Source of the DNA: Planctomycetia bacterium
Lineage (GTDB): Bacteria > Planctomycetota > Planctomycetia > Pirellulales > Thermoguttaceae
NCBI GenBank assembly: GCA_030527105.1
Contig: JAUNBK010000002.1
Coordinates: 44,215 to 108,214 of the forward strand
Reading direction: 5' to 3'
Length of the DNA: 64,000 bases
The stretch's first letter is position 1. The number at the start of each line of letters is the position of its first letter. The position numbers and the translations under genes are program-made. Positions 3,953 to 44,292 of this stretch are shown piece by piece. The notes under the pieces were generated by a model. The model did not search any database and was not told the DNA's origin. It saw only the letters and a list, made by a program, of their open reading frames with translations.

Positions 3953-4060
3953 TATACTCATCGTCGTTTAAAATACCCGTTTTACGCGAGGTTTTGCGAG
4001 CCGTGGTGCGTAGCTCCAACGACGGGCGGAACGGGAAATTTCAACGCGAAGTATCATAAA
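3953..4060 (-). repeat. Family-A palindromic intergenic element
   Basis: TATACTCATCGTCGTTTAAAATACCCGTTTTACGCGAGGTTTTGCGAGCCGTGGTGCGTAGCTCCAACGACGGGCGGAACGGGAAATTTCAACGCGAAGTATCATAAA. Confidence 0.9.
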
Positions 4061-4094
4061 ACTGACACAACACCAGATGTCACTCACGCTCTCG

Positions 4095-5171
4095 TCAGTC
4101 TGGATTCTCGAACGTGGAATTTTGATTTTCGCCAATCCCATAAATCTTGGCGAGATTCCGAACTCGTCGTTTCATTTCGTCGCGGAGCGATTGCGGTTGA
4201 ATCACTTCGACCTCGTCGGCGTATCCAAAGACCCACCAGAGGATTTCTTTGATACCCGAGACCGTAACGCGATAGGCGAGGGTGCCGTTTGAATAAAAGT
4301 GTGCCTGTTCTGTTTCGTGCCATTGGACGCTTTTAATATTTTTAGCAACTTTCTTTGAAAACAACAACTCGACCTCAACATCTTCCTCGTCGCGAATCAT
4401 ATTCCACGCGTTTCCGCGATATTTCTCGTACGACCAGCCGAATGGGGGAACGAAAGTCGCATTCGGGTTGATTTTTAGATTTTGAATACGTTCCAGGTGA
4501 AAAGTGCGCACTTCATTATGAAACGTTGAATAACCTGTGACATACCATGCGTGACGATTAAAGTGAATATGATATGGACATATCGTTGTGCATATAGATG
4601 TATTTTCAAAAACACTGCCGTATTCGACACTAATTTTTATGCAATTCTGCCTCGCCCAGAGGATTTGAAAGAAAAAATCTCGACTGTGCGCTGGCGCTGT
4701 GGGAGCAATGTGGATATGCACGTTTCGAACCTGCTCCTCTGCGGCCTTTTGAATCTCATCTGGAAGTCCACTGGAAAATTTCTCGATCAACGGCACTGAT
4801 GCATTCAAATATGGTATGGATCCCGGCTTGCCAGAGCCGACCTGACCTAAAAGCAAGAGGGAGACTCCATCTTCAACCGCCACTTCAATAGAGTGCAAAA
4901 AAGGAAAGGAGGTTTTTGGAAAATGATACTCTCCTTTATGATTCTTGACCAATGGCTCACGCAAAAAATGCTGAATTTCCTCGATATCTCGATAGATTGT
5001 TCTCTCCTGCTTCTCGGGCGCCACGAGTTGATGAAGCTCCGAGGGCGTGTACCACCCCTGTTGAAGGAGACTGATGACCGTGAGAACCCGCCCCACGTGG
5101 GAGAGCGGTTCGTCCTGCATCTCCCTCATGTGCGAGTCTTTGTTTCCCCGATTATTCGCAAATTCCGACAT
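4095..5171 (-). CDS. WYL-domain transcriptional regulator (HTH + WYL + C-terminal extension; YafY/BrxR/CapW-like architecture)
   Basis: 358-aa ORF. N-terminal wHTH-like segment (LLQQGWYTPSELHQLV...RTIYRDIEEIQ). Central WYL-type block (CPYHIHFNRHAWYVTGYSTFHNEVRTFHLERIQNL). C-terminal block ending ADEVEVIQPQSLRDEM. Visibly more AT-rich than the flanking core genes. Confidence 0.75.
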   Translation of the reverse strand: MSEFANNRGNKDSHMREMQDEPLSHVGRVLTVISLLQQGWYTPSELHQLVAPEKQERTIYRDIEEIQHFLREPLVKNHKGEYHFPKTSFPFLHSIEVAVEDGVSLLLLGQVGSGKPGSIPYLNASVPLIEKFSSGLPDEIQKAAEEQVRNVHIHIAPTAPAHSRDFFFQILWARQNCIKISVEYGSVFENTSICTTICPYHIHFNRHAWYVTGYSTFHNEVRTFHLERIQNLKINPNATFVPPFGWSYEKYRGNAWNMIRDEEDVEVELLFSKKVAKNIKSVQWHETEQAHFYSNGTLAYRVTVSGIKEILWWVFGYADEVEVIQPQSLRDEMKRRVRNLAKIYGIGENQNSTFENPD

Positions 5172-5230
5172 GAATTCCGTTCCCCAACTTTGTTATGGTT
5201 ATCGCACCAAAAACCGTCTTTTATAACACT

Positions 5231-5326
5231 TTTCCCCTAAATTTCGGTTTTCACGAAGTTTCGGAAACCATCGCGCGTCGCTCCAACGGCAGGCAAAACC
5301 GAAAAATTCAATGCGAAACATCATAA
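5231..5326 (-). repeat. Family-A element, diverged copy
   Basis: ...AAATTTCGGTTTTCACGAAG...GCGTCGCTCCAACGGCAGGCAAAACCGAAAAATTCAATGCGAAACATCATAAG. Confidence 0.6.
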
Positions 5327-5432
5327 GACGCTTTCTTTTTACGCTCTCCGCCTACGCCCCCCACGAGCGTGGCGCACTATGATACAATTTTCACCTTAAA
5401 AAGTCAAGACCAAAAATCAAAAAGTTCGACCT

Positions 5433-5556
5433 TCCAACCTCTCAAGAGGAAATTTTTTGAAAATTATTTCTTCTCAAACTCTCCTTCAAAAAACTTGTAG
5501 CCTGCTCACTCCGTTTGCTAGGGAACCGCTGAACAATTCCCTGATTTTGTCAGGAA
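5433..5556 (+). repeat. Family-B repeat, right inverted arm flanking the WYL gene
   Basis: See 3815-3923. The outer tip CCCTGATTTTGTCAGGAAGG resembles the terminal IR of the adjacent IS5 remnant. Confidence 0.75.
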
Positions 5557-5678
5557 GGATTCCGCGAAAGTTGTTTTTTCAAAACAAATCTATATGTTGT
5601 AGTTTTGTGCAAAATCGTTGAAAAATGGGCGTATTATCCCTCGCAAAATCGAGTTTTTTGACCTGCGCGAACGCACAT

Positions 5679-5788
5679 TATACCTGTTCTCCTTTAAAAC
5701 TCCCGTTTTACGCGACGTTTTGCGAGCCGTGGTGCGCAAGCTCCAACGGCGGACGGAAACGAAAATTTCAACGCGAAGTATTATAAAA
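5679..5788 (-). repeat. Family-A element nested in the IS5 remnant
   Basis: Near-consensus copy that abuts the transposase C-terminal remnant. Confidence 0.9.
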
Positions 5789-6128
5789 GGTTCGCAAGAC
5801 CAAAAAGAACGTTGAATCGATTCATGTTTTTGACCAGACCTCGGTACACCACCTTGCTGCGAATCGACGATTTGCGACGCTCAATATCGCGTTCTCAGTC
5901 GATTCCGGTGTACGTTTTGTTCGATTTTCGACAGGCGTTCATCTTCCCGACCGAATCATGCACGTTCGCCGCCGTACCCGCGATGGTGTGAACGTACGGC
6001 TGAATCATCTGCACCCACGCAGCCCACGGAATAATTTCTTCCATTTTCCGCAGAAATTCTTCACGCCTCGTGCCCCGTTTTCTGAGGGAATATTCGTAGT
6101 CCGTGAAAGTCATCTGTTCGTTCGTCAT
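5789..6128 (-). pseudogene. IS5-family (DUF772/DDE) transposase remnant, internally deleted
   Basis: The N-terminus MTFTDYEYSLRKRGTRREEFLRKMEEIIPWAAWVQMIQPY is typical of IS5-family transposases. It jumps directly to a DDE fragment (HTIAGTAANVHDS), then a stop at 5895-5897. The same frame continues with a C-terminal remnant, IRSKVVYRGLVKNMNRFNVLFGLAN. Total length is far too short for an intact transposase. Confidence 0.7.
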
Positions 6129-6328
6129 GGTTCTGCCGTCTCCGCGTTACGTTAAATCGGCATCATCTCCATACTACCCCAGATTATAGCACTTCTTAAA
6201 TTTCTGACAAGACCTGGGATTATACTCGTTCTCCTTTTAAATTCCCGTTTTATGCGACGCTTTGCGAGCCGTGGTGCGTAGCTCCAACGGCGGACGGAAC
6301 AGAAATTTTAGCGCGAAGTATTATAAAG
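6123..6328. repeat. Direct repeat copy 1 flanking the R-M cassette (IS5 5' end + family-A copy)
   Basis: 6123-6195 matches 8399-8473 at about 90% (CGTCATG.TTCT.CCG.CTC.GCGTTACGTTAAATC.GCATCATCTCCATACTACCCCAG.ATTATAGCACTT). In both cases a family-A copy follows in the same orientation. Confidence 0.8.
6221..6328 (-). repeat. Family-A element
   Basis: Near-consensus copy located between the IS5 tip and the methyltransferase gene stop. Confidence 0.9.
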
Positions 6329-6350: not shown

Positions 6351-7298
6351 TCACTTGAGAGCCGGGGCAAAATCCAGTGCAAGCTGAGCCGTACTCAAGC
6401 GATTTCTAGCGACTGCGACAAAGCTCTCGTTTATTTCGATACCAATATAGTGGCGACGGAGGTTTTTGGCAGCCAAACATGTCGTGCCTGACCCTGCGAA
6501 CGGGTCGATGATGATCGCGTCTTCTTGAGTTACAAGTGAGACGAGACATTCCATAAGCCGAAGCGGTTTCTGCGTTTCGTGCAGACCATGATCGGTTTTA
6601 TCGCAAGGTACGGACAAAATATTCGAGTTTGCGCCGCTCCCTGTAGAGGAACGTCGCGTACAATATGTTGAGAGCGCGGTCTCGTTCCACGCGCCGACGC
6701 CGTATTCGGCGACGTTGTCCGCGAGAGTTCCACCAATTTTGTAGGGTTTTTGAAACCACAATATTGGTTCAAAGAGGGGTCGCAAATTAGCAACCCGCCA
6801 GCCTTCCCACAGTTCGGCTTGTTCGTCGTCTCCACGACGTTTGTATATTTCTGAAATTCGTTGTGCGCGATGTGGGGCGGTTGTTTTTTCCCAAGCCAGC
6901 ATGTCTTTAAAGGTGAATCCAGAGTCTTCGAGAGCGACGATACACCTATGGGCAAAACGTCGTCCAGCAAAAATCAAACAAGACGCTCCAGGCTTCAACA
7001 CCCTGAGCCACTCTTCTGCCCAAGAGGAGCACCATTTTTGGTATTCAAGAGGAATTCTTTTGTCGGCACTACTCCACCCATTCAGAGGTTTTCCACGCCG
7101 TTTGAATATAGCTCCCGCGTTATTTTGCGCGGTCGACGTGCCGCCCAATGCCGAATTGGTGTTATTGTGCAGCACATCCCACTCATCGTAACCTATTCCA
7201 TAGGGGATGTCTGAAATAATCGCGTGCGAGTACTCACTTGGAAATGTTTTCATCAATTCCACCGAGTTTCCGCAAACAATCGTATCTAAGTCAATCAC
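6351..7298 (-). CDS. Type II DNA methyltransferase, N4/N6 beta-class (motif IV before motif I); M.HindIII-like by context
   Basis: 315 aa. SDIPYG (DPPY-type motif IV) lies near the N-terminus and IIDPFAGSGTT (FxGxG motif I) near the C-terminus. Its start overlaps the end of the upstream endonuclease pseudogene by 8 nt. Confidence 0.85.
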   Translation of the reverse strand: MIDLDTIVCGNSVELMKTFPSEYSHAIISDIPYGIGYDEWDVLHNNTNSALGGTSTAQNNAGAIFKRRGKPLNGWSSADKRIPLEYQKWCSSWAEEWLRVLKPGASCLIFAGRRFAHRCIVALEDSGFTFKDMLAWEKTTAPHRAQRISEIYKRRGDDEQAELWEGWRVANLRPLFEPILWFQKPYKIGGTLADNVAEYGVGAWNETALSTYCTRRSSTGSGANSNILSVPCDKTDHGLHETQKPLRLMECLVSLVTQEDAIIIDPFAGSGTTCLAAKNLRRHYIGIEINESFVAVARNRLSTAQLALDFAPALK

Positions 7299-8160
7299 GC
7301 TGGATTCCCCTTATATAAGCGTCAATTTGTTGGATTCTCTCATCAATCTTCCTGCTTTTTATCAGTTCAGAGATAGCCTGCTCGCGAGTGTAAGTGGTTA
7401 TTCTTTTGCGTTCATTTTCCCAATACGCTTTTTCAACCTCTCCACGGCGTGCTATATCTTTAACGCATAAGGCTAAAACTCGATCAAAATCCAACAGCGT
7501 CAGCCCGACGGAGGACGCCAAGAAGGCATCGAAATTGCGAATGAAACACTTTTTCTTCTCGGCAACAACCACTTTATGCGAAAGCGTTTCTCCAAAACCC
7601 CACAGCGAAGAAAGATTGATGTGCTCGTTTTCTTTTATGCCCCGAGAAAGTAGGGACAGCAAATGCTCCCAACTCAACAAACAGACGTTATTATCGACTG
7701 CTTGCGCGTATACCTGACTCTGCGAGCGTGGATATTGAAAGTATGGTGAGCACAATACGGCATAATCGTGGTCTTCGCGCCAAGCAGCCAAAGCTCAAAC
7801 CTTAAAATCTTTCTGATTCTTGGCGGTACGACTCATACGAAATGTCTTTGCGTCTGCAACAAGCGTATAGCCAAAGATGTGGGATTGCGCGATTACGTCT
7901 GCGGCATCTCCTCTTTCGGATAGCACCGTTGATTTTAGTCCTAACTCACGAAAAGCGCGCGACAGAACGGCGTCAGACGCTTTAGCAAATAGTTTTTCCC
8001 CGGTTGAATCGTGCGCAATACTTTCTGGGATCGTTCCAATTTGCAAAAGCAATTCTAAAAAATTGTCTGTTGTGGACACAAAAGCATTGATTTTTTCGAC
8101 GTTATCGAAAAACCTCTCGTGCTCTCCTTTCGTGATCAAAGTTAAAAGTTTATTAAACAT
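7291..8160 (-). pseudogene. HindIII-family type II restriction endonuclease interrupted by one in-frame TGA (7795-7797)
   Basis: ORFs 7795..8223 and 7291..7791 are in the same frame and read ...LVADAKTFRMSRTAKNQKDFKV*ALAAWREDHDYAVLCSPYFQYP...LLSWEHLL.... As I recall it, R.HindIII reads LVADAKSFRLSRTAKNQKDFKVKALSEWREDKDYAVLTAPFFQYP...LFSWEHLA. The likely start is MFNKLLTLI at 8160, preceded by AAGGAG. Confidence 0.8.
7795..7797 (-). other. In-frame TGA nonsense codon inside the HindIII-like endonuclease
   Basis: The minus strand reads AAG GTT TGA GCT TTG GCT GCT TGG (K V * A L A A W). The homologous HindIII position is Lys, by my recollection of the sequence. Confidence 0.85.
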
Positions 8161-8398
8161 TAGACTCCTTTTTTCGTGATCCGTTGTCTCGCGGATAGGA
8201 TTTGCGCGCATGAACAGACCCAAGTAGTAACATTATACAGCAACAATGTTGATTTGTCAAGGCTTGTCCATAAAAAACGGAACAATCAGGTGCCTTCAAA
8301 TTTTGGTGGCTAAAAGGCAAAAAGAGCATATTCATCTACCGGAGCCGAGAACGGTGCGTAGCGCAGTTCTGGATGAAGCGTCAAACGATCCTTCCGTC

Positions 8399-8581
8399 CG
8401 TCATGATTCTACCGCCTCTGCGTTACGTTAAATCTGCATCATCTCCATACTACCCCAGTATTATAGCACTTTCTATACTCATTCTCCTTTAAAATCCCGT
8501 TTTGTGTGACACTTTACGAGCCGTAGTGCGTAGCTCCGACGGCGGACGGAAGGGGAAATTCTAACGCAAGGCGTTATAAAA
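8399..8581. repeat. Direct repeat copy 2 flanking the R-M cassette
   Basis: See 6123-6328. This copy lacks the 25-bp IR tip (6196-6220) present in copy 1. Confidence 0.8.
8474..8581 (-). repeat. Family-A element
   Basis: Somewhat diverged copy (TTTGTGTGACACTTTACGAGCCGTAGTGCGTAGCTCCGACGGCGGACGG). Confidence 0.85.
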
Positions 8582-14549: not shown

Positions 14550-14664
14550 TATACTCAGCTGCGTTAAAATTCCCGTTTTTCGCGACCTTTTTGCTCTTCT
14601 GTGGCGCGTAAGCTGCGACGGCAGCGGAACCGGCAATTTCAACGAGTCGTATTAGAAGTATAAT
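14550..14664 (-). repeat. Family-A element, diverged; it ends about 20 nt upstream of the porin start codon
   Basis: TATACTCAGCTGCGTTAAAATTCCCGTTTTTCGCGACC...GCGACGGCAGCGGAACCGGCAATTTCAACGAG...TATAAT. Confidence 0.7.
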
Positions 14665-14901: not shown

Positions 14902-14930
14902 TTGACAAATCGTTTTTTATGGTGTATTAT
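14902..14930 (+). promoter_or_regulatory. Sigma70-like promoter upstream of the S41 peptidase gene
   Basis: TTGACA (14902-14907), a 17-nt spacer, then TATTAT (14925-14930). Confidence 0.45.
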
Positions 14931-14977
14931 GTGATTATAGACGAAGGATTCGATCTGTCAAAATTGAGGGATTTATT

Positions 14978-16630: not shown

Positions 16631-16730
16631 CTTCTGTTGCCTCTTTGGGAGAAATGCGGCGTTTTGCGAGTCGCGGTGCGTCGCTCCAACGCTGAACAGC
16701 AACGGAATTTTTAATGAGACGCATTATAAT
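16631..16730 (-). repeat. Family-A element, diverged; it lies head-to-head with the tandem array
   Basis: ...GCGGCGTTTTGCGAGTCGCGGTGCGTCGCTCCAACGCTGAACAGCAACGGAATTTTTAATGAGACGCATTATAA. Confidence 0.7.
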
Positions 16731-17033
16731 ACTTCGCGTTGAAATTTCCGGTTCCGTCCGCCGTCGGAGCTACGCACCACGGCTCGCAAAGCGTCGCGCA
16801 AAACGGAATTTTAAAGGAGAACGAGTATAATACTTCGCGTTGAAATTTCCGGTTCCGTCCGCCGTCGGAACTACGCACCACGGCTCGCAAAGCGTCGCGC
16901 AAAACGGAATTTTAAAGGAGAACGAGTATAATACTTCGCGTTGAAATTTCCGGTTCCGTCCGCCGTCGGAACTACGCACCACGGCTCGCAAAGCGTCGCG
17001 CAAAACGGAATTTTAAAGGAGAACGAGTATAAA
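16725..17033 (+). repeat. Family-A element, three tandem copies (period 101 bp)
   Basis: TATAAT starts at 16725, 16826 and 16927. Copies 2 and 3 appear identical on my reading, and copy 1 differs from them at one base (GGAGC vs GGAAC). Confidence 0.95.
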
Positions 17034-17195
17034 ATTACTCGTAGCTGCGCCGCCCTACTGTCTTGCGTGGGGCGTTCTTTCTTGATTTTGAGCGTAAAAT
17101 AAAACAGTGTGCTTTATACTCTTCGCATTGCGCAGATCATTTGCCGAGGCGAAAAGTGGAAGTGGTAGTGGATTGAAATCTGTAAGGAGAAAAAA

Positions 17196-26456: not shown

Positions 26457-26464
26457 CGGGTATA

Positions 26465-26572: not shown

Positions 26573-26590
26573 CACTTTTCTTGTGTACCC

Positions 26591-28697: not shown

Positions 28698-29564
28698 GTG
28701 GGTTTAAACTGTATTGTGTGTGTGAAACAGGTTCCTGACACGGCTAACGTTACGTCTGACGCTATGACGCCAGAAGGGACCGTGAATCGAAGCGCGCTTC
28801 CGACGATTTTTAATCCGGAGGACCTTCACGCGCTTGAGACGGCATTGGAAATTCGAGATCGTTGGGGCGGAAGCGTCACGGTTGTTTCGATGGGGCCTCC
28901 CAAAGCGGCGGATGTTCTGCGCGCTTGTTTGTTCCGTGGGGCGGATCGTGCGATTCTTCTCACCGACAGACGTGCGGCGGCGAGCGACACCCTCGCGACA
29001 AGCTACATTCTCGCTCAGGCAGTGAAAACTATCGGAAATTACGATCTCGTCTTGTGTGGGCGTCAGGCGATTGATGGCGACACGGCGCAGACCGGTCCTC
29101 AAATCGCCGAGAAACTTGCGTTGCCCCAAGTCACGTATCTCGAGGCGATCGAAAGTGTGAAAGACACGAACGGCGAAAAATCCGCACGAATCAAAAGAAA
29201 TGTCGGCAACGGCTGGGAGCTTGTGGACGTTTCGCTTCCCGCTCTCGCGACCGTTTTGGACACGGCGAACGAGCCTCGCCCTCTTGCGGCAAAAAAGGTG
29301 ATGCGTTTCAAGCACGCCGCGATTCCGGCGGAAGTCGACGAGGCAAAAGCGGAGGAACTTCGAGAGGAGAATCTCCTTATCGAGCAATGGACGCTTGACG
29401 ACATCAATGCCGACCTCGATCGTTGCGGCTTGGCGGGTTCTCCCACCAAAGTTTATCGGGTGGAATCCATCGTCCTCACGAAAGAAGGCTTCACGCCCGT
29501 CGAACCTACGGAAGAGGGAATCAGCAAGTTGATTCAGGAACTCGTTTCCGAACGAACGCTTTAG
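28698..29564 (+). CDS. etfB: Electron transfer flavoprotein, beta subunit
   Basis: 288 aa (GTG start). N-terminal IVCVKQVPD and DLVLCGRQAIDGDT motifs. Confidence 0.9.
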   Translation: MGLNCIVCVKQVPDTANVTSDAMTPEGTVNRSALPTIFNPEDLHALETALEIRDRWGGSVTVVSMGPPKAADVLRACLFRGADRAILLTDRRAAASDTLATSYILAQAVKTIGNYDLVLCGRQAIDGDTAQTGPQIAEKLALPQVTYLEAIESVKDTNGEKSARIKRNVGNGWELVDVSLPALATVLDTANEPRPLAAKKVMRFKHAAIPAEVDEAKAEELREENLLIEQWTLDDINADLDRCGLAGSPTKVYRVESIVLTKEGFTPVEPTEEGISKLIQELVSERTL

Positions 29565-29624
29565 GCTCAATGTGAGTACATTTTTTATCCTAATAGAACG
29601 AAACAAGAAATAAGAAATAAAAAA

Positions 29625-30662: not shown

Positions 30663-30769
30663 AATTCCTGCGCAGATTGGCTGTGCGAGTTGGCAAAAAG
30701 ACGGGCGCGCCTCGGGGTGCGTGGTTTTTCAAAAAATGTGTAACAATTCAATTATTTATATAAAAAATC

Positions 30770-32515
30770 ATGGGAAACTATTATCTCGATAACGAAGATA
30801 TCCAGTTCTATTTCGACGTTTTAGACGTTAAAAAGCTGGCTGAGATTCAGGAAGATTATGCCGACAATGGCGAGGCGGACTATGTGCCGCGCGATTTGGA
30901 TGATTGTGTCGATAATTATCGCCGCATCCTCGAAATCGCTGGGGCGATCGCTGCCGACACGCTCGCAAAAAATGCCGAGCAGGTCGACGAGGAGGGGAAC
31001 ACCCTCAATCCCGACGGAACCGTCACGCTTCATCCTCTCGTGCGCGAGAATCTCAGGAAAATGGCGCAGGCCGACTTGATGGGATTCACGCTCCCGAGGC
31101 GTTATGGTGGGCTGAATTGTCCCACGCTCGTCTATACAATGGCGACGGAAATTGTCGCGCGGGGCGACGTCTCGTTCATGAATATGTTCGGGCTGCAGGG
31201 CATTGCCGAGACGATCAATGCGTTTGCGAATCAAGAAATTAAGGACGAAACCCTCCCAAGGTTTTGCTCCGGAGAAGTGACGGGGGCGATGGTTCTCACC
31301 GAGCCGGACGCGGGAAGCGACCTCCAAGCCGTCCGACTGCGCGCCGATTATGACGAAGCGACCGGGCAGTGGCTCCTCAACGGCGTCAAACGTTTCATCA
31401 CAAACGGCTGCGGTGAAATCCTTCTCACCCTTGCGAGAAGTGAGCATCATATCGACGACGGGCGTGGTTTGAGCCTATTTATCTCGGAGAGAAACGAGTG
31501 CGTCAAAGTCCGCCACCTCGAGCACAAGTTGGGAATCCACGGCTCCCCCACTTGCGAGTTGGTTTTCACCAATTGCCCCGCAAAATTGATCGGAGACCGC
31601 CAGCGTGGTTTGATCACGTACGTGATGGCGCTCATGAACGGCGCGCGTTTGGGTATTGCCGCTCAATCCTTGGGCGTGGCGGAAGCTGCGTTTCGATTGG
31701 CGAGGGTGTATGCGAATTCGCGCTGCCAATTTGGCGGACCTATTGAGAATCTGCCTCCCGTGGCGGAAATGCTCACGGATTCGAAGGTCTCGATCGAAGC
31801 CGCGCGCGCATTGGCGTACGAAACCGCTGCCGTCTGCGACCAGGAAAACAACGCTCTTCGTCTGACGGAGACGATTGAAGACTTGCCGAAAGAGCGCTCG
31901 AAGGAGCTTAAGCAGGTGACGCGAAAGCTGAAGCGCCTGAACGCAATGCTCACGCCAATGTCCAAATTGTATGCCTCAGAGATGTGCAATAAGGTGGCGT
32001 ACGACGCGATCCAAGTCCTCGGCGGCTCCGGCTACATGAAAGATTACGCAGCAGAGCGCTACGCACGCGACGCGAGAATCACGAATATTTACGAAGGAAC
32101 GAGCCAACTCCAAGTCGTGGCGGCAATCAAAGGAATCACGAGCGGAATTTTCAAAGATTACGTTGAAGAGATGGAGAAAGTCGTTTACGAGGATGCCGAG
32201 TTGGAGGAGTTGAAGGCGCAGCTGGTGGATGCGAAAGCGAAAATTCAAGAGTGCGTCGACTTCGTGAAAGGGTGTTCCGTTACGTATACGGACCTCAACT
32301 CACGCAGACTCGTCGAGATGGGCATGAGTGTCATTATTGGACATTATTTGCTCAAACAAGCCGCAAAATGCGATCGAAAAAAGACAATTCTCAAGTACTT
32401 CCTGGCGCGAGAGATTCCGATGATCGATCGTTATCGACAGCGCATTTTCAACGGCAATCAACTTGCGGTGGATGCGTATCTTGAGATCGTGGGAGAGGTT
32501 CCTCAGGCGGAATAA
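30770..32515 (+). CDS. Acyl-CoA dehydrogenase (long form, about 580 aa)
   Basis: LTEPDAGSD, GSPTCEL and IYEGTSQLQ motifs. It lies immediately downstream of etfBA. Confidence 0.85.
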   Translation: MGNYYLDNEDIQFYFDVLDVKKLAEIQEDYADNGEADYVPRDLDDCVDNYRRILEIAGAIAADTLAKNAEQVDEEGNTLNPDGTVTLHPLVRENLRKMAQADLMGFTLPRRYGGLNCPTLVYTMATEIVARGDVSFMNMFGLQGIAETINAFANQEIKDETLPRFCSGEVTGAMVLTEPDAGSDLQAVRLRADYDEATGQWLLNGVKRFITNGCGEILLTLARSEHHIDDGRGLSLFISERNECVKVRHLEHKLGIHGSPTCELVFTNCPAKLIGDRQRGLITYVMALMNGARLGIAAQSLGVAEAAFRLARVYANSRCQFGGPIENLPPVAEMLTDSKVSIEAARALAYETAAVCDQENNALRLTETIEDLPKERSKELKQVTRKLKRLNAMLTPMSKLYASEMCNKVAYDAIQVLGGSGYMKDYAAERYARDARITNIYEGTSQLQVVAAIKGITSGIFKDYVEEMEKVVYEDAELEELKAQLVDAKAKIQECVDFVKGCSVTYTDLNSRRLVEMGMSVIIGHYLLKQAAKCDRKKTILKYFLAREIPMIDRYRQRIFNGNQLAVDAYLEIVGEVPQAE

Positions 32516-32631
32516 CGAAGCGAGTCGGACGGCAATTTGGGACTCCAACTTGTCGTCCGATTTTGTTTTTTGTCCATCAAGGAGGAATCGCAAGGCGAGA
32601 AGCGGAAGTCGCGGAGGCAACGGAGGTAGTC

Positions 32632-34836
32632 GTGCTCTTTCTTCATCCTTTTTTTCTCGGGGCACTCGTGTGCGCAGGGATACCCATTCTGCTTCATTTT
32701 TTGACGAAACCGAAGCCGAAACGGGTCGTTTTTCCTGCGTTGCGCTTTCTCCAAGAGAATCGCCAGTCGCGCGCTCAATCGCTCAAAATTCGGCACATCC
32801 TTCTCATGCTGCTTCGGGTGGCGCTTATCGTTCTTATTGTTTTGGTTTTTGCACGCCCTCAAACCTCGGGAGGAGATGCGGCGGGGGAAAACGCGCCGAC
32901 TGCCGCTATCTTCGTGTTCGACAATCTTCCGAGAATGGATTATATGCAAAAAAACAAGTCTCGTTTGGACGAGGCGAAGGATCGAGCGCGTGGGTTTTTG
33001 CGGCGTCTGCCTGCCGGGAGTGTTGCGGCGGTCGCGACGCCTCAAACGACTCCCACTGCGTTTTTGCCCGATCGAGAGGAGGCGCTTCGGCAAATTGAGC
33101 GTTTGGAGACCGTCCCTTCGCTCAAGGATTTAACGCGAGTGTGTGCGGAATCGTTGAAACTCTTTGATAATTGCGACTTGCCGAGAAAAGAAATTTTTAT
33201 TTTCACGGACGGAAGCGAGGAAGCGTGGAGTGTCGACTCGAATGCCCTGAAACAAGCGCTCGAACACCACCCCTCGACACGCGTGACACTGGTCGACGTG
33301 AGTGCGACGGAGGTCGCCAACTCCTGTTTGGAGATTCCTCTCGCGGACAATTTCCAAGTCCTTCGTGGCGGAAACGTTCGAATTCAGGCGCGAATATTTC
33401 GAACGGGCGTCGTTTCGCACGTTCAAAGGGCGGCATTGTTCCTCGTGGACGAGAATGGAGTCCCGCAAAAACGAGGCGAGAAGGAGATTCGCGACGTACA
33501 AAATGCCGAGTCCGTTTTCGAGTTTGAGATCGGGGGCTTGAGCAATGGGACGCACCAAGGGTGGATCGAGCTGACGCCGTCGGACGCGCTTGAGTGCGAC
33601 AATCGGCGTTTTTTCACGATCTACCTTCCGCCTCCCGCGCCGATTTTGCTCGTGGCAGACGCGCCTGCCGAAAAAAGCGCCTTTCTCGTGAAACAAGCAT
33701 TGGCGCCCGCTCTCCTTCAGAAGGAGAATAGAGCCAAATTTGAGTGCGACGTCGTGTCCCACGAGGAGTTCAAGCGCCGTTTAGAAAATAGCACCGAAAG
33801 CGGCTCCCTCCAAAATTATCGCTCCATTTTCGTCTTGAATCCAAAATCCTTCTCGCCGCGCCAGTGGAACACCATGGCGCAATTCGTTCATGATGGTGGC
33901 GGGATTGGTTTCTTCTTGGGCGACGCAATTGAAAAAGGTGCCGATTTTTCGACTCTCGAGGCGCGGCTGATTTTGCCCGCGACGGTTGAATTCCAAGCGC
34001 GTTGGTCGGACGGAGTCGCTCTCGCGATGCCGAGGGGCGTCACTCATCCGATCGCTCAGACGTTTGTCGATTTGGAGGTTCCGATCCCGTGGTCTGCGTT
34101 CCCCATTTTTCGCGCATGGCAGACTGGCACGTTAGAAAAAGGGGCGCAAACGGCGTTGTTTTTCGAGAATGGCACTCCCGCCGTCCTCGAGAAAGCGTAT
34201 GGACGCGGCAAAGCGCTTTTAATGACCACGCCTATCCATGTTGAGACCGGCGGCTCCGAGCGACAGTGGAACCTCCTCCCGCTCGGGGAATCGTGGATTT
34301 TCGTGGTGCTTATGAATTCGATTGCCGATTATTTATCCCATGGCGAGGATGTGTCGTACAACGTGACGAACTTCCAAACGCTTCGCCTTGTGCCGCCAGA
34401 GGAAGCGGGTGAGCGTTTTTGGCTCGCACCGCGCGAAATCGTCGAAACGAACCCCACAGCCGCGCCCAACACAGCGCTTTCGACTCGCGAAGGCGTTGTG
34501 TCGCTTGTTGCGGATAGAAAAGCGCGCAGCCTCGACGTCCCGGCGCTCGAACGCTCGGGGAATTATGTACTACGCAGCGAGGAGTCCGATTTTTGGCGCG
34601 GAATCAGCGTGAATATGCCCCGTTTTTGTACGCACATTCAACCGTTGCCGACGGAAGAGCTTCGCGAGGTTTTTGTGCCACTCAACGTGTCGATTTTGAA
34701 AAACGCGCAGGGAAATTTGCGCGAAGAGACGCGATTTTGGTCGAGTGTCGACTGGTTCGCGATTCTTGCGCTTCTCACGATTTCGCTTTTCATTGTGGAA
34801 AATTGGCTTGCGGGTCGATTCTACAAAATTTTATAA
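32632..34836 (+). CDS. BatA-type N-terminal double-TM protein (aerotolerance-operon-like) with a VWA-like region
   Basis: GTG start at 32632 after GGAGG. N-terminus LFLHPFFLGALVCAGIPILLHFLTKPKPKRVVFPALRFL is the canonical BatA N-terminal domain. There is a C-terminal TM helix. Confidence 0.7.
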   Translation: MLFLHPFFLGALVCAGIPILLHFLTKPKPKRVVFPALRFLQENRQSRAQSLKIRHILLMLLRVALIVLIVLVFARPQTSGGDAAGENAPTAAIFVFDNLPRMDYMQKNKSRLDEAKDRARGFLRRLPAGSVAAVATPQTTPTAFLPDREEALRQIERLETVPSLKDLTRVCAESLKLFDNCDLPRKEIFIFTDGSEEAWSVDSNALKQALEHHPSTRVTLVDVSATEVANSCLEIPLADNFQVLRGGNVRIQARIFRTGVVSHVQRAALFLVDENGVPQKRGEKEIRDVQNAESVFEFEIGGLSNGTHQGWIELTPSDALECDNRRFFTIYLPPPAPILLVADAPAEKSAFLVKQALAPALLQKENRAKFECDVVSHEEFKRRLENSTESGSLQNYRSIFVLNPKSFSPRQWNTMAQFVHDGGGIGFFLGDAIEKGADFSTLEARLILPATVEFQARWSDGVALAMPRGVTHPIAQTFVDLEVPIPWSAFPIFRAWQTGTLEKGAQTALFFENGTPAVLEKAYGRGKALLMTTPIHVETGGSERQWNLLPLGESWIFVVLMNSIADYLSHGEDVSYNVTNFQTLRLVPPEEAGERFWLAPREIVETNPTAAPNTALSTREGVVSLVADRKARSLDVPALERSGNYVLRSEESDFWRGISVNMPRFCTHIQPLPTEELREVFVPLNVSILKNAQGNLREETRFWSSVDWFAILALLTISLFIVENWLAGRFYKIL

Positions 34837-34925
34837 TGCTTCGCATTGAAATTTCCCGTTCCGTCCACCGTCGGAGCTACGCACCACGTCACGCAAAACG
34901 GGAATTTTAAAGGACGATCAGTATA
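34832..34925 (+). repeat. Family-A element with an internal deletion, between two co-oriented genes
   Basis: Its TATAAT contains the TAA stop (34834-34836) of the BatA-like gene. It ends 17 nt before the ATG at 34943. Confidence 0.85.
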
Positions 34926-37234: not shown

Positions 37235-37414
37235 AATTCAATCCATCTACATTTTGTGGAGTGGCATTCCGTATAACACCATATTTTCCCAAAGACTATG
37301 AAAGATTCAAAAGTTGGCGCAGGTTGAAATTTTTTATTAAAAATTCCCCTTGTCCACTTGCATCCCGCCCCAATTTAAGGTATAATGATCCCAGTGGTGG
37401 GTCGTTTTGTGGTA

Positions 37415-37513
37415 CATTGCGTTGAAATTTCCGGTTTTGCCTGCGTTGGAGCGACGCACCTCGGCTCGCAAAACGTTGCGAAAAACGGAAATTTTAGAGC
37501 ACAACAAGTATAA
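37415..37513 (+). repeat. Family-A element ending about 14 nt before the FGE-family gene start
   Basis: GCGTTGAAATTTCCGGTTTTGCCTGCGTTGGAGCGACGCACCTCGGCTCGCAAAACGTTGCGAAAAACGGAAATTTTAGAGCACAACAAGTATAA, followed by AGGAGG and the ATG. Confidence 0.85.
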
Positions 37514-38624: not shown

Positions 38625-38729
38625 TATAATACTTCTCGTTGAAATATCCGTTTCCGTCCGCCGTCGGAGCTACGCACCACGGCTCGCAAAGCGTCGCGTA
38701 AAACGGGTTTTAAAGGAGAAAGAGTATAA
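38625..38729 (+). repeat. Family-A element
   Basis: Near-consensus copy directly after the FGE-family gene stop. Confidence 0.9.
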
Positions 38730-39476: not shown

Positions 39477-42293
39477 TCAAAGAGTAGCCGCGTGGTCGAC
39501 GTCGAGCATTTCTCGGGTGCCAGAGGGGTCCGCACGCTCGCACGTTAGCGTGAGCAGGTCGATCATGCTTTGCAGGTCGTTTCTCCACTCTTCGGAGTTG
39601 CCGCACGGAAGGTCTAGCTCCAGAAACTCGCCCAAGAGCAAAATGAGGCGCAGCGTGTGCCGAAAAATCATCCCCTCCTGCTTTTGCAACCCCTTCGAGG
39701 TGATGTAGCTGTTGAAATTCCCATTGAACTTGAGCAGTTCCCCGGCAGCCCACACAGGGAAAATGCGAGCGTCCGAAACGAGCGGGTACTCGAATTGGAA
39801 CAGTCGGAACATCTTCTCCGCAAACGGAATCGTATAAATCGGCTCCAACAGCGCATCTCGCCTTTTTCTCCTCTCTTCGGGTGTCTGCGCGATCAGCTCT
39901 TCCGGCAACGCCAGCCCCAACTCGAGCAGCCGTTGGTCGAGGAACCCTTTTGCTAGCCGACCTCTCGGCAAGTCGTCCTGATTAGGCACTCGCACCGGCG
40001 CGCCTAGAGAGTAGGGCAGCTCCAAGAGACTCTCGAAAACCTGAATCCTCTCCTCGCGATCCGCAAAAGGAAGGTACTGCAGGAGGAAAGTCCCATAGAT
40101 GGGGTGGATGCTTCGCATTTGCGCCGCGCGCGTCAGATCCTCGGTGGGGTACGCTTTGAGTGGGACGTATCGTGGTTTTTCCTCTGGCGCTTCGTTGAGT
40201 TCAGAATTCAACACCGCGATTCCGTTCACGAAAGTATACGCTTTCTTCGGCTCTCTTTTTTGAGGTGGGACCTCGTCTTTTTGGTTGCGGGAATTCAGCG
40301 TCAGACTCTCATTGCGAGGTGTGATTATCTGCGTCTTTTCCACCAGATTATCCACAGGCGTTGCCGTCTCTTGGGCGTTTGCTCCTTGCGGCGTCTCCTC
40401 AACGGGGGCGTTCGGAAGGTCGGCAGACGCCTCATCCTGAATAAGCAGCGGCTTTTCCACATCATCAGATTGTGGAGAAACACCCCACTGCGACTCGGGG
40501 ATACTCAACGTCGATAACTCTTCCGCGTCGTCGAAAATTCCCGCACCGAACGCCGAGGCTTTCGACACGTTTTCCACATGCTCTTCCACATCATTTTCCA
40601 CGAACGCAGCATCACTCTTTTCCACCAGATTGGATGCCGCGTTATCCACATCCGTCGTCGAAATGTCACTTTTTGCGTCGGGCAAGCTCGGTGCGTTCAA
40701 ACTCGGCGCAGCCAAACTCGGCACGACCATCGGCACATCCGGGCGACGCAAACGCGGGTACCAATCCGCCGGTGGCAACGGCTCTAAATTCACGAATCCC
40801 CCGCTCCATAGCGTGGCGATCATACGCTCCAGGTCGTCCTGCGCGTGGTCCAAACGCTTTCCAAAAAGGAGCCTTTTCTTGACCAACGTGCGCAAGAGTT
40901 CCACGTCGGGCGAGGCGTTGAGCATATAAGCCAACAAGCGCCAAGGCGTGACGCCCCGACTCTCCAAATTGCTCGCTGCCGCGTGCCGCAACTTGTTGAA
41001 CTGCGCCTCGTTCCAATATTGAAGATTCGGATTCCGCTTCGGCTGCTTCTTCTTGAGCGACTTTTTCTCCGCCAGCACCTTCGGGTCCTTCGAGTCGGCA
41101 GGGAGCTTATCAAATTTCTCCTGCCAGCGCGCGATTCGAACGTCGTCCTCGTGCGCCAAGACAAAGACGTGCCCCCTCGTGTCAAATTGAGGTCTGCCCG
41201 CGCGCCCGAAGATTTGGTGCGCACTCCCGGGGTCGATCATCGTTTGTCGACCAGCAGGTCCCTTCATCAAACTGGGCAAAACGACCGAACGCGCGGGGAG
41301 ATTGATCCCTGCCGAGAGTGTCTCGGTACAAGTGCAAATCGCGAGCAGCTTCTGTTGGAACAAATACTCCACGATCCTCCGATACCTTGGCAAAATGCCT
41401 GCATGATGCACCCCGACGCCGCGCTGCAGGAGTGCCTTGAGTTTTGGTCCCGCCCCTTGCGACCAATCGAATCGCGCCAACTCCCCGACCAAAGCCGATT
41501 TGGCAGCGGGCATGATCAATTCCTTTCCCTTGATCTCCTCCGCGACGCTCCAGCACTCCTCACGATTGAAGCAAAAGACCAACGCGGGCGTGCAACGCTC
41601 CTCCTCTTTGCCCAGCGCCATCCACTGAATTTGCTCCACGAGCGTCATGTCTCCCACCCATTGAAAGACCAGGGGCACCTTTCGCTCGTCACTTTGTACC
41701 AGCTCCAACTTCCGCCCGTGCTCGTGCTCCAGCCAGTTCGAAAACTGCATCGCATTCCCCACCGTGGCGGACAAAAGCATGAGCCGCACGTGCGTCGGCA
41801 ACAGTGCTAAAGAGAACTCCCACACGATGCCACGCTCTGGATCGTTGAAATTGTGGAACTCGTCCATCACCACGGAGTGCACGTCGGCAAAATCGAATTG
41901 CTCGGGATGCAACAATCGATTGAAGAGAATCTCCGCGACGACAACCAAAATGGGCGCGTTCGGATTGACCTTGTGATTCCCCGTGACCAAGCCAACGTCG
42001 TCCGGCGAGAATCCCCACTCCTCGACCTTTTTCTGCAAGTCGCGAAACTTCTGATCCGTGAGCGCAATCAGGGGCGTGGTGTAATACATCCTCTTCTTTG
42101 AGTGGAGCGCCTCGAAAACGGCAGCCTCTGCAATGAGCGTTTTGCCTGTCCCTGTCGGCGCGCAAACCAACACTCCCTGCTCGCACGAAAACCACGCAAG
42201 CAACGCCTCCTCCTGCACGGGATAAAGCGCATAAGGAATCGCGTCCAGAAACTTCTCAGCAATCGCGTCTCGCGTCATATAATTGATCTCCAT
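39477..42293 (-). CDS. DEAD/DEAH-box (Ski2/Lhr-like, DUF3516-type) helicase
   Basis: 938 aa with APTGTGKT (Walker A), DEFH (DExH) and SATVGN motifs and a helicase C block (HHAGILP). An acidic low-complexity insert lies at about 40330-40800. Confidence 0.8.
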   Translation of the reverse strand: MEINYMTRDAIAEKFLDAIPYALYPVQEEALLAWFSCEQGVLVCAPTGTGKTLIAEAAVFEALHSKKRMYYTTPLIALTDQKFRDLQKKVEEWGFSPDDVGLVTGNHKVNPNAPILVVVAEILFNRLLHPEQFDFADVHSVVMDEFHNFNDPERGIVWEFSLALLPTHVRLMLLSATVGNAMQFSNWLEHEHGRKLELVQSDERKVPLVFQWVGDMTLVEQIQWMALGKEEERCTPALVFCFNREECWSVAEEIKGKELIMPAAKSALVGELARFDWSQGAGPKLKALLQRGVGVHHAGILPRYRRIVEYLFQQKLLAICTCTETLSAGINLPARSVVLPSLMKGPAGRQTMIDPGSAHQIFGRAGRPQFDTRGHVFVLAHEDDVRIARWQEKFDKLPADSKDPKVLAEKKSLKKKQPKRNPNLQYWNEAQFNKLRHAAASNLESRGVTPWRLLAYMLNASPDVELLRTLVKKRLLFGKRLDHAQDDLERMIATLWSGGFVNLEPLPPADWYPRLRRPDVPMVVPSLAAPSLNAPSLPDAKSDISTTDVDNAASNLVEKSDAAFVENDVEEHVENVSKASAFGAGIFDDAEELSTLSIPESQWGVSPQSDDVEKPLLIQDEASADLPNAPVEETPQGANAQETATPVDNLVEKTQIITPRNESLTLNSRNQKDEVPPQKREPKKAYTFVNGIAVLNSELNEAPEEKPRYVPLKAYPTEDLTRAAQMRSIHPIYGTFLLQYLPFADREERIQVFESLLELPYSLGAPVRVPNQDDLPRGRLAKGFLDQRLLELGLALPEELIAQTPEERRKRRDALLEPIYTIPFAEKMFRLFQFEYPLVSDARIFPVWAAGELLKFNGNFNSYITSKGLQKQEGMIFRHTLRLILLLGEFLELDLPCGNSEEWRNDLQSMIDLLTLTCERADPSGTREMLDVDHAATL

Positions 42294-42346
42294 TTCCCAG
42301 CCATTGTTGGAACACCCTCACATTCAAACGAGATGAGACGGGGTTT

Positions 42347-42450
42347 TATAATAGTTCGCGTTGAAATATCCCATTCCGTCTGCGGTCGGAGCTACGTACC
42401 ACGGCTCGCAAAACGTCGTGCAAAACGGGAAATTAAAGGACAATGAGTCT
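42347..42450 (+). repeat. Family-A element
   Basis: TATAATAGTTCGCGTTGAAATATCCCATTCCGTCTGCGGTCGGAGCTACGTACCACGGCTCGCAAAACGTCGTGCAAAACGGGAAATTAAAGGACAATGAG. Confidence 0.9.
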
Positions 42451-42571
42451 AGAAGGCGTCGGCAAGAAAAAATCGCCGTCCGACGCGGGATACGCATCGG
42501 ACGTTCCGTCCCTGGCGCGATTTTCGCCCCACTCAAGGAGCAGCGTCAACCTTGACAAAAGGCGATTGCCG

Positions 42572-43324
42572 CTACGCGACCAGAGAAAACTCGTACGGCA
42601 CACCCCCCAACGCTTCGACAAACTCTTCGAAGATGCGCAGGTCGAGAGCGGTTGCCGCTGCACTTTCGGGGTGGAATTGAACCCCGATGGCAAACCAATC
42701 ATCCATGAAGCTCTCGATCGCCTCAATTACGCCGTCCGGCGACGTGGCAGAGACGCAGAATCCAGGAGCGACTTCGTTCAAAGCCATATGATGGCGACTA
42801 CAGACACGAATTTCCGAATCGCCATAGACTTTTTCCATGAGCGTTCCAGGGGTCACCTCGAGAGTGTGACGATGCAAAGGTGAGTGAAGATCAAAGTGAG
42901 GCAAGGCTTTCGGCAAGTCCACCGGAATATGGAAGAAAAGAGTCCCCCCCATCGTGACGTTCAGAAGCTGCATTCCGGAACCAATGGCGAGAACCGGGAT
43001 TTTTTGCTCCGCAACGATTCGAACGAGCATACGGTCGAAATCCTCTCTGCGTGCCGGCATGGGACGAACGGTCGAATGAAGCTCGTAGCCGTCGCGACGA
43101 GAGTCTAAGTCACCGCCGCCAGACAAAACGATACCATCCAACGTATCGAGCGCAGTGCGAAGATCTTCTTCTGAAAGAGAAGGCGGAAGGATAAAGGGAA
43201 TCCCGCCAGCTCGCGAGATAGACTCATAATAACCCGCCCAGACGTAGCTAAAAGCTTCTTTGCCATTTTTGGCGTTAGAAAAATCAGCGTTCAATCCGAT
43301 GCGCGGTTTCTTCCCAAATTGCAT
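42572..43324 (-). CDS. Class I glutamine amidotransferase, peptidase C26 / PuuD-like gamma-glutamyl hydrolase
   Basis: 250 aa with LSGGGD, GSGMQLLN (catalytic Cys replaced in the G-x-G-x-Q context; not checked further) and VQFHPE motifs. Confidence 0.7.
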   Translation of the reverse strand: MQFGKKPRIGLNADFSNAKNGKEAFSYVWAGYYESISRAGGIPFILPPSLSEEDLRTALDTLDGIVLSGGGDLDSRRDGYELHSTVRPMPARREDFDRMLVRIVAEQKIPVLAIGSGMQLLNVTMGGTLFFHIPVDLPKALPHFDLHSPLHRHTLEVTPGTLMEKVYGDSEIRVCSRHHMALNEVAPGFCVSATSPDGVIEAIESFMDDWFAIGVQFHPESAAATALDLRIFEEFVEALGGVPYEFSLVA

Positions 43325-44185
43325 TTATTTTCCTCCTGAAAAAAGTTCATGCAAGATCAAGCGACACGTTTTTGGCGTGCATTTTGAAGTCCCCCTGACG
43401 TCGAAATCGAAAAAAATACTCCACAAATCTGCATCCTTGCATTTTCACGTGAATTTTTTCTCATTCGAAGGTCCCCATGCTGTCAGAATCCCCAGTATAA
43501 ATTCTGGCGACATTGCAGTGTGTTCAGTTCATCAAAATTTTATCGCTATAATCCCACCCAATCCTTTCTAACGGCAAAACTTGCCGCCCAGAAGTGCAAA
43601 TCAGGGTTAAGTATAGAGGCTTTTTATTTTTTTGCAAGCCCATGCACGCATATAGGCAAGGAACTTTCTTCCCGCACAATATGTGGTACAAAAGGCGCTT
43701 TGCAAGATGTGGTTTTCCGAAAGTGGCGAGAGCCAAATCTTCCTCAGTTAGAATTTGCAACAAAGCCAAAACAATCGTCATATCCCGAAAAATCCGCATT
43801 CAAACGAAACTTCACCAATTCCGACGGAATTTCACGCTCTTTCGGGATTCTTTTCGCTTTTCTTTAAATTTTTTCTTCTTTCACAAAAATTTTCCAAGGA
43901 TTTTTTCTCGAAGTACACCATACCTCTGTATACGTACAACACGATGATTTTGCTCACACTTTCTTTTCGTCATTATAAAAACATATCAATAAAAGGTTTC
44001 TACTGTATTTTTGTTCTTTTTTGCCTTGAAATGTTCTTTTTTTGGAAAAATCCCCTGCCCATCCCTTGAAAATTTCGCGCAGCCGGGTACAAATAGATTA
44101 TGTAGAGGTCGTTTTGCACGAGGTTGCTTTGTGACTCCGTGTAGAATTTCCACGACTGCCTGCCGTTGCAACTGCGTGCCGATAG

Positions 44186-44292
44186 ATACTCGCTTCCGTT
44201 TAAAATTCCGGTTTTACGCAACGTTTCGCGAACCGAGGTGCGTAGATCCGGCAGCGGACGGAGCCGGGAATTTCAACGAGAAGCATTATAAT
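44186..44292 (-). repeat. Family-A element
   Basis: ATACTCGCTTCCGTTTAAAATTCCGGTTTTACGCAACGTTTCGCGAACCGAGGTGCGTAGATCCGGCAGCGGACGGAGCCGGGAATTTCAACGAGAAGCATTATAAT. Confidence 0.85.

Follow-up and report, generated by a model that had tools for sequence, protein, structure and literature searches.

A dense intergenic repeat of an uncultured planctomycete is most probably a miniature transposon that inserts at TA

What kind of DNA recurs again and again between the genes of a single bacterial contig? The question arose from a 64-kb stretch of DNA (hereafter, the window) that forms part of a 115-kb contig from a Planctomycetia metagenome-assembled genome (MAG; locus tags Q4D38_). Within it recurs a repeat, here called family A, with a unit of 101–103 bp between flanking TAs. 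A first-pass annotation of the window had counted at least 19 occurrences, had placed every one between genes and had suggested a functional role for them. We found that the repeat is most probably a non-autonomous DNA transposon (a miniature inverted-repeat transposable element [MITE]) that inserts at TA and duplicates it; any effect of the spacer copies on gene expression would be a by-product.

A filled and an empty site at TA

The diagnostic copy lies in the remains of another mobile element, an insertion sequence (IS). Here and below, exact copy limits include the flanking TA on each side.

5518 to 6195, minus strand: decayed IS5/IS1182-like element, host of the diagnostic insertion and separate from the repeat family
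5679 to 5785, minus strand: family A copy within the 3′ end of the decayed IS5-like transposase gene; diagnostic filled site

The IS5/IS1182-like element retains a 77-aa open reading frame (ORF) fusing the N-terminus to a DDE piece, shows internal deletions, and still has a C-terminal piece and a 3′ non-coding end. The left end of the copy at 5679–5785 cuts off the C-terminal coding piece of this IS, which continues past the right end. The sense strand of the repeat begins TA-TAA, and in this copy, the one that we translated, the transposase frame stops on entering the element. Excising 105 nt (the element plus one TA) restored the frame (...FGLANLLMCVRAGQKTRFCEG / ...NRFNVLFGLANLLMCVRAGQKTRFCEG, each closed by a stop), and BLASTP aligned the restored frame to the last residue of P0108, an IS5/IS1182 transposase from Planctomycetia, with 44 identities in 65 columns, of which 16 correspond to a single internal deletion on the window side. 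The locus encoding P0108 (L032) has an uninterrupted IS end. The window DNA minus the 105 nt aligned to it across ~370 columns, extending into the IS 3′ non-coding end; the junction was free of gaps, and three larger indels lay elsewhere. The sequence is AACCTTT-TA-[TAATAC...CAGGTA]-TA-ATGTGCG at the filled site and AACCTTT-TA-ATGTGCG once restored, with TA as the sole repeat. This copy and L032 are a filled/empty pair with a 2-bp TA duplication, from which it follows that the element is mobile and duplicates its TA target.

Independent support for insertion came from the differing occupancy of one conserved operon spacer, that between a BatA-like and a GATase1-like gene. The spacer is empty and 22 nt long in one related locus (L006); in the window it is occupied by a sense family A copy, and in another locus (L010) by two antisense copies of a second family, family B (described below). 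Upstream of the same GATase1-like gene, a further locus (L009) carries A-like plus B-like copies. In the window, the stop codon of the BatA-like gene (34834–34836) consists of the TA duplication and the first element bases (TA+TAA) of copy 34832–34925. The insertion thus replaced the last codons of the BatA-like gene; before it, this gene probably extended as far as the start of the next one or overlapped with it.

The junctions of the remaining copies agreed with a TA target. TA was present at both ends of 14 of the 16 full or near-full copies, which confirmed the TA/TATA ends described in the first-pass annotation. The base at −1 of the left flank was T in 13 of 15 independent flanks, the base at +1 of the right flank was A in 10 of 19, and the target context is AT-rich, with a consensus of about TT-TA-aa. 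As the element has a TA of its own at either end, each insertion comes to be flanked by TATA. Where neighbours lie head-to-head, these TAs are shared or adjoin one another: the junctions read GTATTA-TAATAC in the window and in L004, and GTATTA-TA-TAATAC in L001. In the tandem array described below, the period of 101 equals the exact distance between the two TATAs of a single insertion, which points to unequal exchange between TATAs and not to re-insertion, since the latter would give 103. Occupied and unoccupied sites came to light as one filled/empty pair and one variably occupied operon spacer. Together with the terminal inverted repeats and a sister family that shares the right end, they support the earlier suggestion of a TA-targeting MITE (Correia-like, of IS630/Tc1 type).

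Number, extent and setting of the copies

A 20-mer taken from the repeat unit matched the window 12 times at three or fewer mismatches, against 0.04 matches expected by chance, and Tandem Repeats Finder reported an array at 16701–17032 (period 101, 3.3 copies, 97% matches). Using a profile built from the copies, nhmmer detected 16 full or near-full copies, one of them belonging to family B, and five fragments, all between 3953 and 45141. The dense recurrence noted in the first-pass annotation was therefore real. Summed, the copies amount to ~1.95 kb, that is, 3.0% of the window and 4.7% of the interval 3953–45141. They are clustered: the first 3.9 kb (1–3900) and the last 19 kb (45200–64000) of the window have none, and the profile found no copy in 6.6 kb beyond the left window edge (L029 contig). 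The copies and fragments are as follows, in addition to the diagnostic copy listed above.

3953 to 4058, minus strand: family A copy, 106 nt including both TAs (nhmmer E=2e-34); between the GDSL-lipase gene (2195–3622, minus) and the WYL/WCX gene (4095–5171, minus), in the same orientation as both
5222 to 5325, minus strand: diverged family A copy, 51 nt upstream of the WYL-gene ATG (5171); nhmmer E=8e-15 and alignment
6221 to 6325, minus strand: family A copy between the DNA methyltransferase gene (6351–7298, minus) and the IS5-like remnant
8474 to 8578, minus strand: family A copy between the GT4 glycosyltransferase gene (stop 8597) and the second IS5-like 5′ remnant with the split HindIII-like gene
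14550 to 14657, minus strand: diverged family A copy, 19 nt upstream of the porin ATG (14530), with a native GGAGGA in between
16655 to 16730, minus strand: family A copy truncated to its 5′ two-thirds (nhmmer E=1.5e-12); it meets the tandem array head-to-head and is antisense to the plus-strand genes on either side
16725 to 16829, 16826 to 16930 and 16927 to 17031, plus strand: three tandem family A copies, period 101, joined via shared TATA; flanked by the S41 peptidase gene (stop 16612) upstream and a terminator-like hairpin (17051–17074) downstream
23045 to 23120, plus strand: fragment of a decayed family A copy, upstream of the RND/MMPL transporter gene (23319) in a divergent spacer; nhmmer E=3e-7 and repeat-finding
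26360 to 26464, minus strand: family B copy, antisense to the flanking plus-strand genes (family B profile E=4.5e-34 and alignments); right end abutting the T-run of a terminator-like hairpin (26340–26356), left end abutting copy 26465
26465 to 26570, plus strand: family A copy; profile and end fixing
26588 to 26630, minus strand: right-end fragment of a decayed copy; repeat-finding and a weak nhmmer match
34832 to 34925, plus strand: family A copy with a 14-nt internal deletion, filling the whole spacer between the BatA-like and GATase1-like genes and ending 17 nt before ATG 34943
37408 to 37512, plus strand: family A copy, 15 nt upstream of ATG 37528, with a native AAGGAGG in between
38625 to 38728, plus strand: family A copy directly after the FGE-sulfatase-like gene (stop 38610)
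42347 to 42451, plus strand: family A copy, antisense to both flanking minus-strand genes; between a strong minus-strand terminator-like hairpin (42503→42477) and the Hel308-like helicase ATG (42293)
44138 to 44180, plus strand: decayed 5′ fragment adjoining copy 44185–44290
44185 to 44290, minus strand: family A copy; the peptidase C26 and LemA genes diverge from the spacer that contains it
45099 to 45141, plus strand: weak 5′-end fragment upstream of the M48 peptidase gene; nhmmer E=0.03

None of the copies hits an intact gene, and two alone touch coding sequence (34832–34925 and 5679–5785). The earlier statement that every copy is intergenic thus held for intact genes, with one copy sitting in a transposase pseudogene and one supplying a stop codon. 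Genes in the window include those for DUF1570, BatA/double-transmembrane proteins, a phosphate-selective porin, ETF/acyl-CoA dehydrogenase and a Hel308-like helicase, a content in keeping with a Planctomycetia source. Short-read (Logan) contigs of the same sample break inside copies: L005 corresponds to window 26494–34916, and L029 ends at copy 3953. Such breaks fit a true multi-copy repeat.

Element ends and a sister family

The terminal inverted repeats are ~30 bp long and imperfect, with 19 of 30 positions identical in family A and 20 of 31 in family B; the left end of family A is an especially imperfect part. A profile search that gave weak matches in the MAG S1R_St_60 led us to family B, TA-TACCCGATGCACTATAAATTTCCGCTTCACCGGCATTTTTGCTTCGCTGAAAATGCCTGCTTTCAGAGCCGCACAAAACGGAAATTTAAAnGAGAACCAGTA-TA. 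Its right end has 25 of 31 positions in common with that of family A, whereas the interiors differ. The family ends contain a conserved subterminal block, (T/A)AAATTTCCG, and a terminal TAC, giving the end pattern TAC(T/C)(C/G)G...AAATTTCCG.

A 21-mer scan of the genome collection located family A in two other MAGs, S1R_St_26 and S1R_St_60. Locus L010 of the latter is an unbiased one, as it was fetched through a gene rather than through the repeat, and family B makes up ~1.7 of its 16.3 kb (~10%). Some of these family B copies (1139–1272, 5283–5408 and 5455–5618) bear an extra internal block (CTGTCCGCCGAC...CC, ~13–20 nt) after the left arm, which may be a subfamily feature or a nested micro-insertion. 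Diverged members were present in two further MAGs (L009 and L030), and the profile search found no copies in loci L006–L008, L029 and L032. Synteny between the window and S1R_St_26, where we sought further empty sites, was limited to 490 alignable nt.

Searches elsewhere returned no described relative. The plasmid and phage collections held no match to the repeat, and a pattern scan of IMG/VR found none. In JGI metagenomes the exact 21-mer found nothing, and the gapped superfamily pattern matched only unrelated AT-rich coding sequences. At gathering scores Rfam yielded only two tRNAs in the window, and at E≤1 it gave only spurious miRNA-hairpin matches on the head-to-head pair; the Rfam comparison that the first-pass annotation had proposed thus matched no known structured RNA. 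No paper that describes the repeat family came up in full-text searches on Planctomycetes and on the source MAGs. Families A and B are a new two-family superfamily of TA-duplicating MITEs in uncultured Planctomycetia, of a kind already known (RUP/Correia-like).

Two other identities were considered and rejected. GC content and the Correia likeness had hinted at a Neisseria-type origin, but the 64 kb contain no variant of the DNA uptake sequence or the uptake signal sequence, and the host belongs to the Planctomycetia. Integron attC sites were dismissed for want of core sites and because housekeeping genes flank the copies.

Search for the mobilising enzyme

An IS630/Tc1-mariner-type enzyme is the usual agent of TA duplications, and the enzyme that mobilises the repeat is probably of this type, judging from the TA duplication alone. 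Across ~190 kb of Planctomycetia DNA (the window plus ~125 kb of related loci), the transposases were IS5-like remnants only, with ends unlike those of the repeat. A second 5′ remnant in the window (8388–8470, minus strand) shares 71 nt with the first at 87% identity, and both begin 13–36 nt past the right end of a repeat copy. The IS5-like remnants were rejected as parent elements since their left end (AAGTGCTATAATCTGGGGTAG...) is unlike the MITE ends. The ORFs flanked by family B copies in L002 were likewise rejected as transposases: a 770-aa ORF shows only a PEP-CTERM motif, and the others had no family match.

Orientation of the copies

At 13 of 16 loci (binomial p=0.02), the right end of the repeat points towards the 5′ end of the next gene. 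A bias had been reported before at 11 of 15 loci, and it is upheld here, if modest. Part of it may have a simple source. On the sense strand of co-directional spacers with the copies masked, TTTA occurred 35 times versus 17 for TAAA; if the left end prefers the T side, target availability would yield about two-thirds co-orientation. Measured against this expectation, 13 of 16 was not significantly higher (p=0.17), and the 11 of 12 seen for intact family A copies was marginal (p=0.057). The TTTA excess may therefore explain the orientation bias in part. Among family B copies in L010, ~8 were co-oriented versus 4 antisense, including the two antisense copies in the operon spacer.

The bias bears on another type of element. 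A single-strand HUH/Y1 element, of REP/REPIN or IS200/IS605-derived type, would insert 3′ of TTTA without duplication, in an orientation that follows the replication fork and not the genes. Apart from the bias itself, this account would fit the conserved left flank, TT(T)TA, beside a far less conserved right flank, the helix that G-T pairs can extend on the minus strand only in both families, and the occurrence of REP families in Planctomycetes (PMC3733652). However, the ends form long-range inverted repeats and not separate subterminal hairpins, one central hairpin being predicted, and they have no GTAG/CGTC-headed 20–40-bp palindrome; GTAG occurs only internally, on the minus strand. The empty site has a single TA where the filled one has TA at each junction, the left flank of head-to-head neighbours is ATTA or TATA and not TTTA, and the window ORFs that we scanned included no Y1 transposase. 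The GC skew, moreover, tracks the coding strand, including the minus-strand gene block at 40–44 kb, so that gene direction and possible replication direction are confounded here and no independent sign of a replication switch emerged. We consider a single-strand element very improbable.

As for replication, five DnaA-box-like 9-mers (two of them perfect TTATCCACA) lie within 300 bp at 40348–40650, inside the Hel308-like helicase gene. Across the window, 21 such 9-mers occurred at one or fewer mismatches versus 7 expected. The cluster is away from the turn of the cumulative GC skew (~24 kb).

Orientation also bears on the possibility that a former MITE has been domesticated as a module of untranslated regions (UTRs), its sense copies being kept because their RNA acts, possibly by making adjacent mRNA segments more or less stable or by offering AAGGAG plus TATA as a translation-initiation context for the next gene. 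The figures of 13 of 16 and 11 of 12 favour such a module, as does the fact that most antisense pieces are truncated, decayed or of family B (16655, 26360 and 26588), the intact copy at 42347 being the exception. Several copies end 15–19 nt from a start codon, and ERIC elements set a precedent for an orientation-dependent effect on mRNA stability (PMC2229807). Against a domesticated module, the observed 13 of 16 does not significantly exceed the ~2:1 co-orientation that TTTA and TAAA would give, and the homologous operon spacer in L010 holds two antisense family B copies.

Folding and covariation

The folding energy of a single family A copy was no better than that of dinucleotide shuffles (z=+0.30 and +0.25 for the two strands). 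Compared with mononucleotide shuffles, the consensus folds reached z values of −1 to −1.7 for family A and −2.3 to −3.7 for family B. RNAalifold retained only a 9-bp central hairpin, without compensatory change. In a 30-pair model of family A covering 20 copies, 87.5% of cells could pair versus 86.7% in column shuffles (17/500), and 4 pairs showed a double change versus 3.2 in shuffles (180/500). The corresponding values for family B (24 pairs, 20 copies) were 78.8% versus 77.6% pairing and 9 versus 7.7 double changes (145/500). Cells with G-U numbered 32 and those with A-C 21; there was no clear excess, and hence neither strand is favoured as RNA.

None of these measures, taken over both families, gave a sign of selection for the hairpin. 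The first-pass annotation had proposed that each copy folds into a long hairpin whose arms change together. The inverted ends on which this proposal drew are real, but the hairpin is weak in family A, and the supposed co-variation (CCGG/CGGA versus CCCG/CGGGA) is a single variable pair, with covariation overall at shuffle level. The hairpin potential is simply what the inverted-repeat architecture gives.

Transcription and translation signals

No sigma-70 or sigma-54 promoter and no intrinsic terminator was found inside the copies. Perfect TTGACA-16/17-TATAAT promoter-like sites lie outside them (14961→14934 and 8260→8232), as do terminator-like hairpins (17051–17074, 26340–26356 and 42503→42477). 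The positions of these signals place copy 14550 in the porin 5′ UTR, the tandem array in a 3′ UTR and copy 34832 inside an operon. By this sequence evidence, copy 14550–14657 probably lies within the porin 5′ UTR, downstream of the promoter-like site at 14961→14934. Where the S41 peptidase and porin genes diverge, their spacer (14902–14961) contains back-to-back, near-perfect promoter-like sites of sigma-70 type, TTGACA-17-TATTAT on the plus strand and TTGACA-16-TATAAT on the minus strand, which suggests that the organism uses canonical −35/−10 promoters. A reading of TGAAAT-N16-CGTC within the element as a site for an extracytoplasmic function (ECF)-like sigma factor was rejected: the position of CGTC varies (CGTT, TGCC), and a regulon of such size is implausible.

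The right ends of the three start-proximal copies lie 19, 17 and 15 nt from the ATGs at 14530, 34943 and 37528, in agreement with the 14–20 nt given earlier. These copies leave a native GGAGGA, GGAAATGAG or AAGGAGG before the ATG. As for the AAGGAG within the element, about half of family A retains it and family B does not.

These results returned us to the UTR module. Although promoter and terminator positions put copies inside transcription units, as the module would have it, covariation does not exceed that of shuffles, G-U is not clearly above A-C, single family A copies fold like shuffles, and AAGGAG is missing from half of family A and from family B while native Shine-Dalgarno sequences persist downstream. 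A domesticated module is unlikely. A broader version has the MITE superfamily growing to 3–10% of the DNA in a clade of uncultured Planctomycetia, with sense copies kept since their RNA acts on its own mRNA by way of stability, processing or translation context; through base pairing with sense copies in their hundreds, the few antisense ones could then link many transcripts into one RNA–RNA network. This idea is quite unlikely.

The junctions could also make each copy a portable promoter that brings a −10 hexamer (TATAAT at the left junction; TATACT at the right junction, on the other strand), as in some Correia insertions. Flanking −35-like hexamers are suitably spaced at 42323–42352 (plus), 8586→8558 (minus) and 37534→37507 (minus). 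However, only these 3 of 16 copies score, with 9–10 of 12 matches and a −35 that comes by chance from the flank; this parallels Correia but is not a general property. The element contains no properly spaced −35, perfect TTGACA-16/17-TATAAT sites exist elsewhere, and copies also lie in 3′ UTRs and inside an operon. We regard a portable promoter as extremely improbable. With signals outside the copies, native Shine-Dalgarno sequences, a poorly kept AAGGAG and shuffle-level covariation, the functional role suggested at the outset (promoter or 5′ UTR donor, stabilising hairpin, terminator) was unsupported by the tests that we ran.

Other features of the window

A restriction-modification pair of low GC content (0.46–0.48) occupies 6351–8223 on the minus strand. 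Its DNA methyltransferase gene (6351–7298) looks intact, and the HindIII-like endonuclease is split into two ORFs (7291–7791 and 7795–8223), which on its sequence is probably inactivated; the WYL/WCX regulator gene (4095–5171) is nearby. The 1-kb spacer in which some copies and fragments lie also contains an 84-aa ORF at 26747–27001 (plus); it has a lipoprotein-like signal (MRKVLIAIVLSLFVFQSTGC) and is probably a genuine small gene. Short tandem repeats, in frame and with periods of 24 and 12, at 48572–48642, 48832–48863 and 50880–50916, unrelated to the MITE, lie within or just upstream of the gene for a 1241-aa alpha-amylase-domain protein (48682–52407).

Discussion

The mobility, target and architecture of the repeat are demonstrated by one filled/empty pair and by the analysis of the ends. 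For a MITE of this kind, small and putatively non-coding, a transposase encoded elsewhere in the genome would move the element in trans. Copies would gather in spacers, where TA-rich targets such as terminator T-runs, sites upstream of ribosome-binding sites and the ends of resident copies are found, and selection would purge insertions into genes. The TATA junctions, formed by the TA duplication and the terminal TA of the element, could account for both the head-to-head neighbours and the 101-bp tandem array. Most copies would be co-transcribed in 5′ UTRs, 3′ UTRs or intra-operon spacers, with effects on expression as a by-product.

Several observations weigh against a TA-duplicating MITE. 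The terminal repeats of family A are poor (63% identical). The TA duplication was read from one filled/empty pair, and the sequence would look no different if an element with its own terminal TA had inserted 3′ of a TA without duplicating it. There is a mild asymmetry between the flanks, with TT on the left in 9 of 15 versus AA on the right in 4 of 19 (p=0.03, borderline). The orientation bias (13 of 16; 11 of 12 for intact family A, p=0.006) is stronger than symmetric cut-and-paste predicts. Finally, no autonomous partner or IS630-type transposase was found in the ~190 kb of Planctomycetia DNA.

The superfamily adds TA-duplicating MITEs to a phylum for which our literature searches on small repeats returned only REP-type elements. 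Only its load and orientation bias exceed what is seen in ordinary selfish DNA. Local loads are very high, at 3% of the window and ~10% of a 16-kb locus in a sister MAG, and the landing in or near IS remnants is RUP-like. Should the bias exceed target availability genome-wide, the family would lend itself to the study of how MITE insertions within transcription units are filtered by selection. On the practical side, the repeat breaks short-read assemblies of these Planctomycetia, and a model of families A and B would aid binning, scaffolding and annotation and would stop fragments from being called genes.

Comparison with known systems

REP/REPIN sequences, which are mobilised by RAYT and have been reported in Planctomycetes (PMC3733652), are likewise abundant extragenic palindromic repeats, often in dimers or arrays. 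They differ in having 20–40-bp units with a GTAG/CGTC head and no target duplication, whereas the units described here are 101–103 bp long, with TA-TAC ends and a TA duplication. Elements derived from IS200/IS605 have no inverted ends, carry a separate subterminal hairpin at each end and insert 3′ of a fixed tetra- or pentanucleotide; here the ends are inverted, and the left flanks include ATTA, TATA and TTTA.

ERIC/IRU elements are imperfect ~127-bp palindromes with TA termini that lie in transcribed spacers and have an orientation-dependent effect on mRNA stability in Yersinia (PMC2229807). Unlike family A, which folds like shuffles, they form stable RNA hairpins, with a function shown experimentally.

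Correia/NEMIS elements combine TA duplication, TATA-type termini able to create −10 boxes, a length of ~105–155 bp, very high density and co-transcription with neighbouring genes (PMC2229807), a combination that family A resembles. Their inverted repeats are ~24 bp and near-perfect, by contrast with the 19 of 30 of family A, which comes without uptake sequences and from a Planctomycetia host; the comparison covered host, uptake sequences and described features.

RUP is ~107 bp long and non-coding, with terminal inverted repeats, a TA target and more than 100 intergenic copies that are often inserted into IS elements, and it is thought to be mobilised by IS630-Spn1 (PMC2229807). It occurs in another phylum and has no known sequence relationship to family A, orientation bias is not among its described features, and a matching resident IS is known for RUP, whereas none was found here. 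The likeness lies in the 101–103 bp and TA of family A and in its setting, one copy lying in an IS5-like remnant and two more within 13–36 nt of IS remnants.

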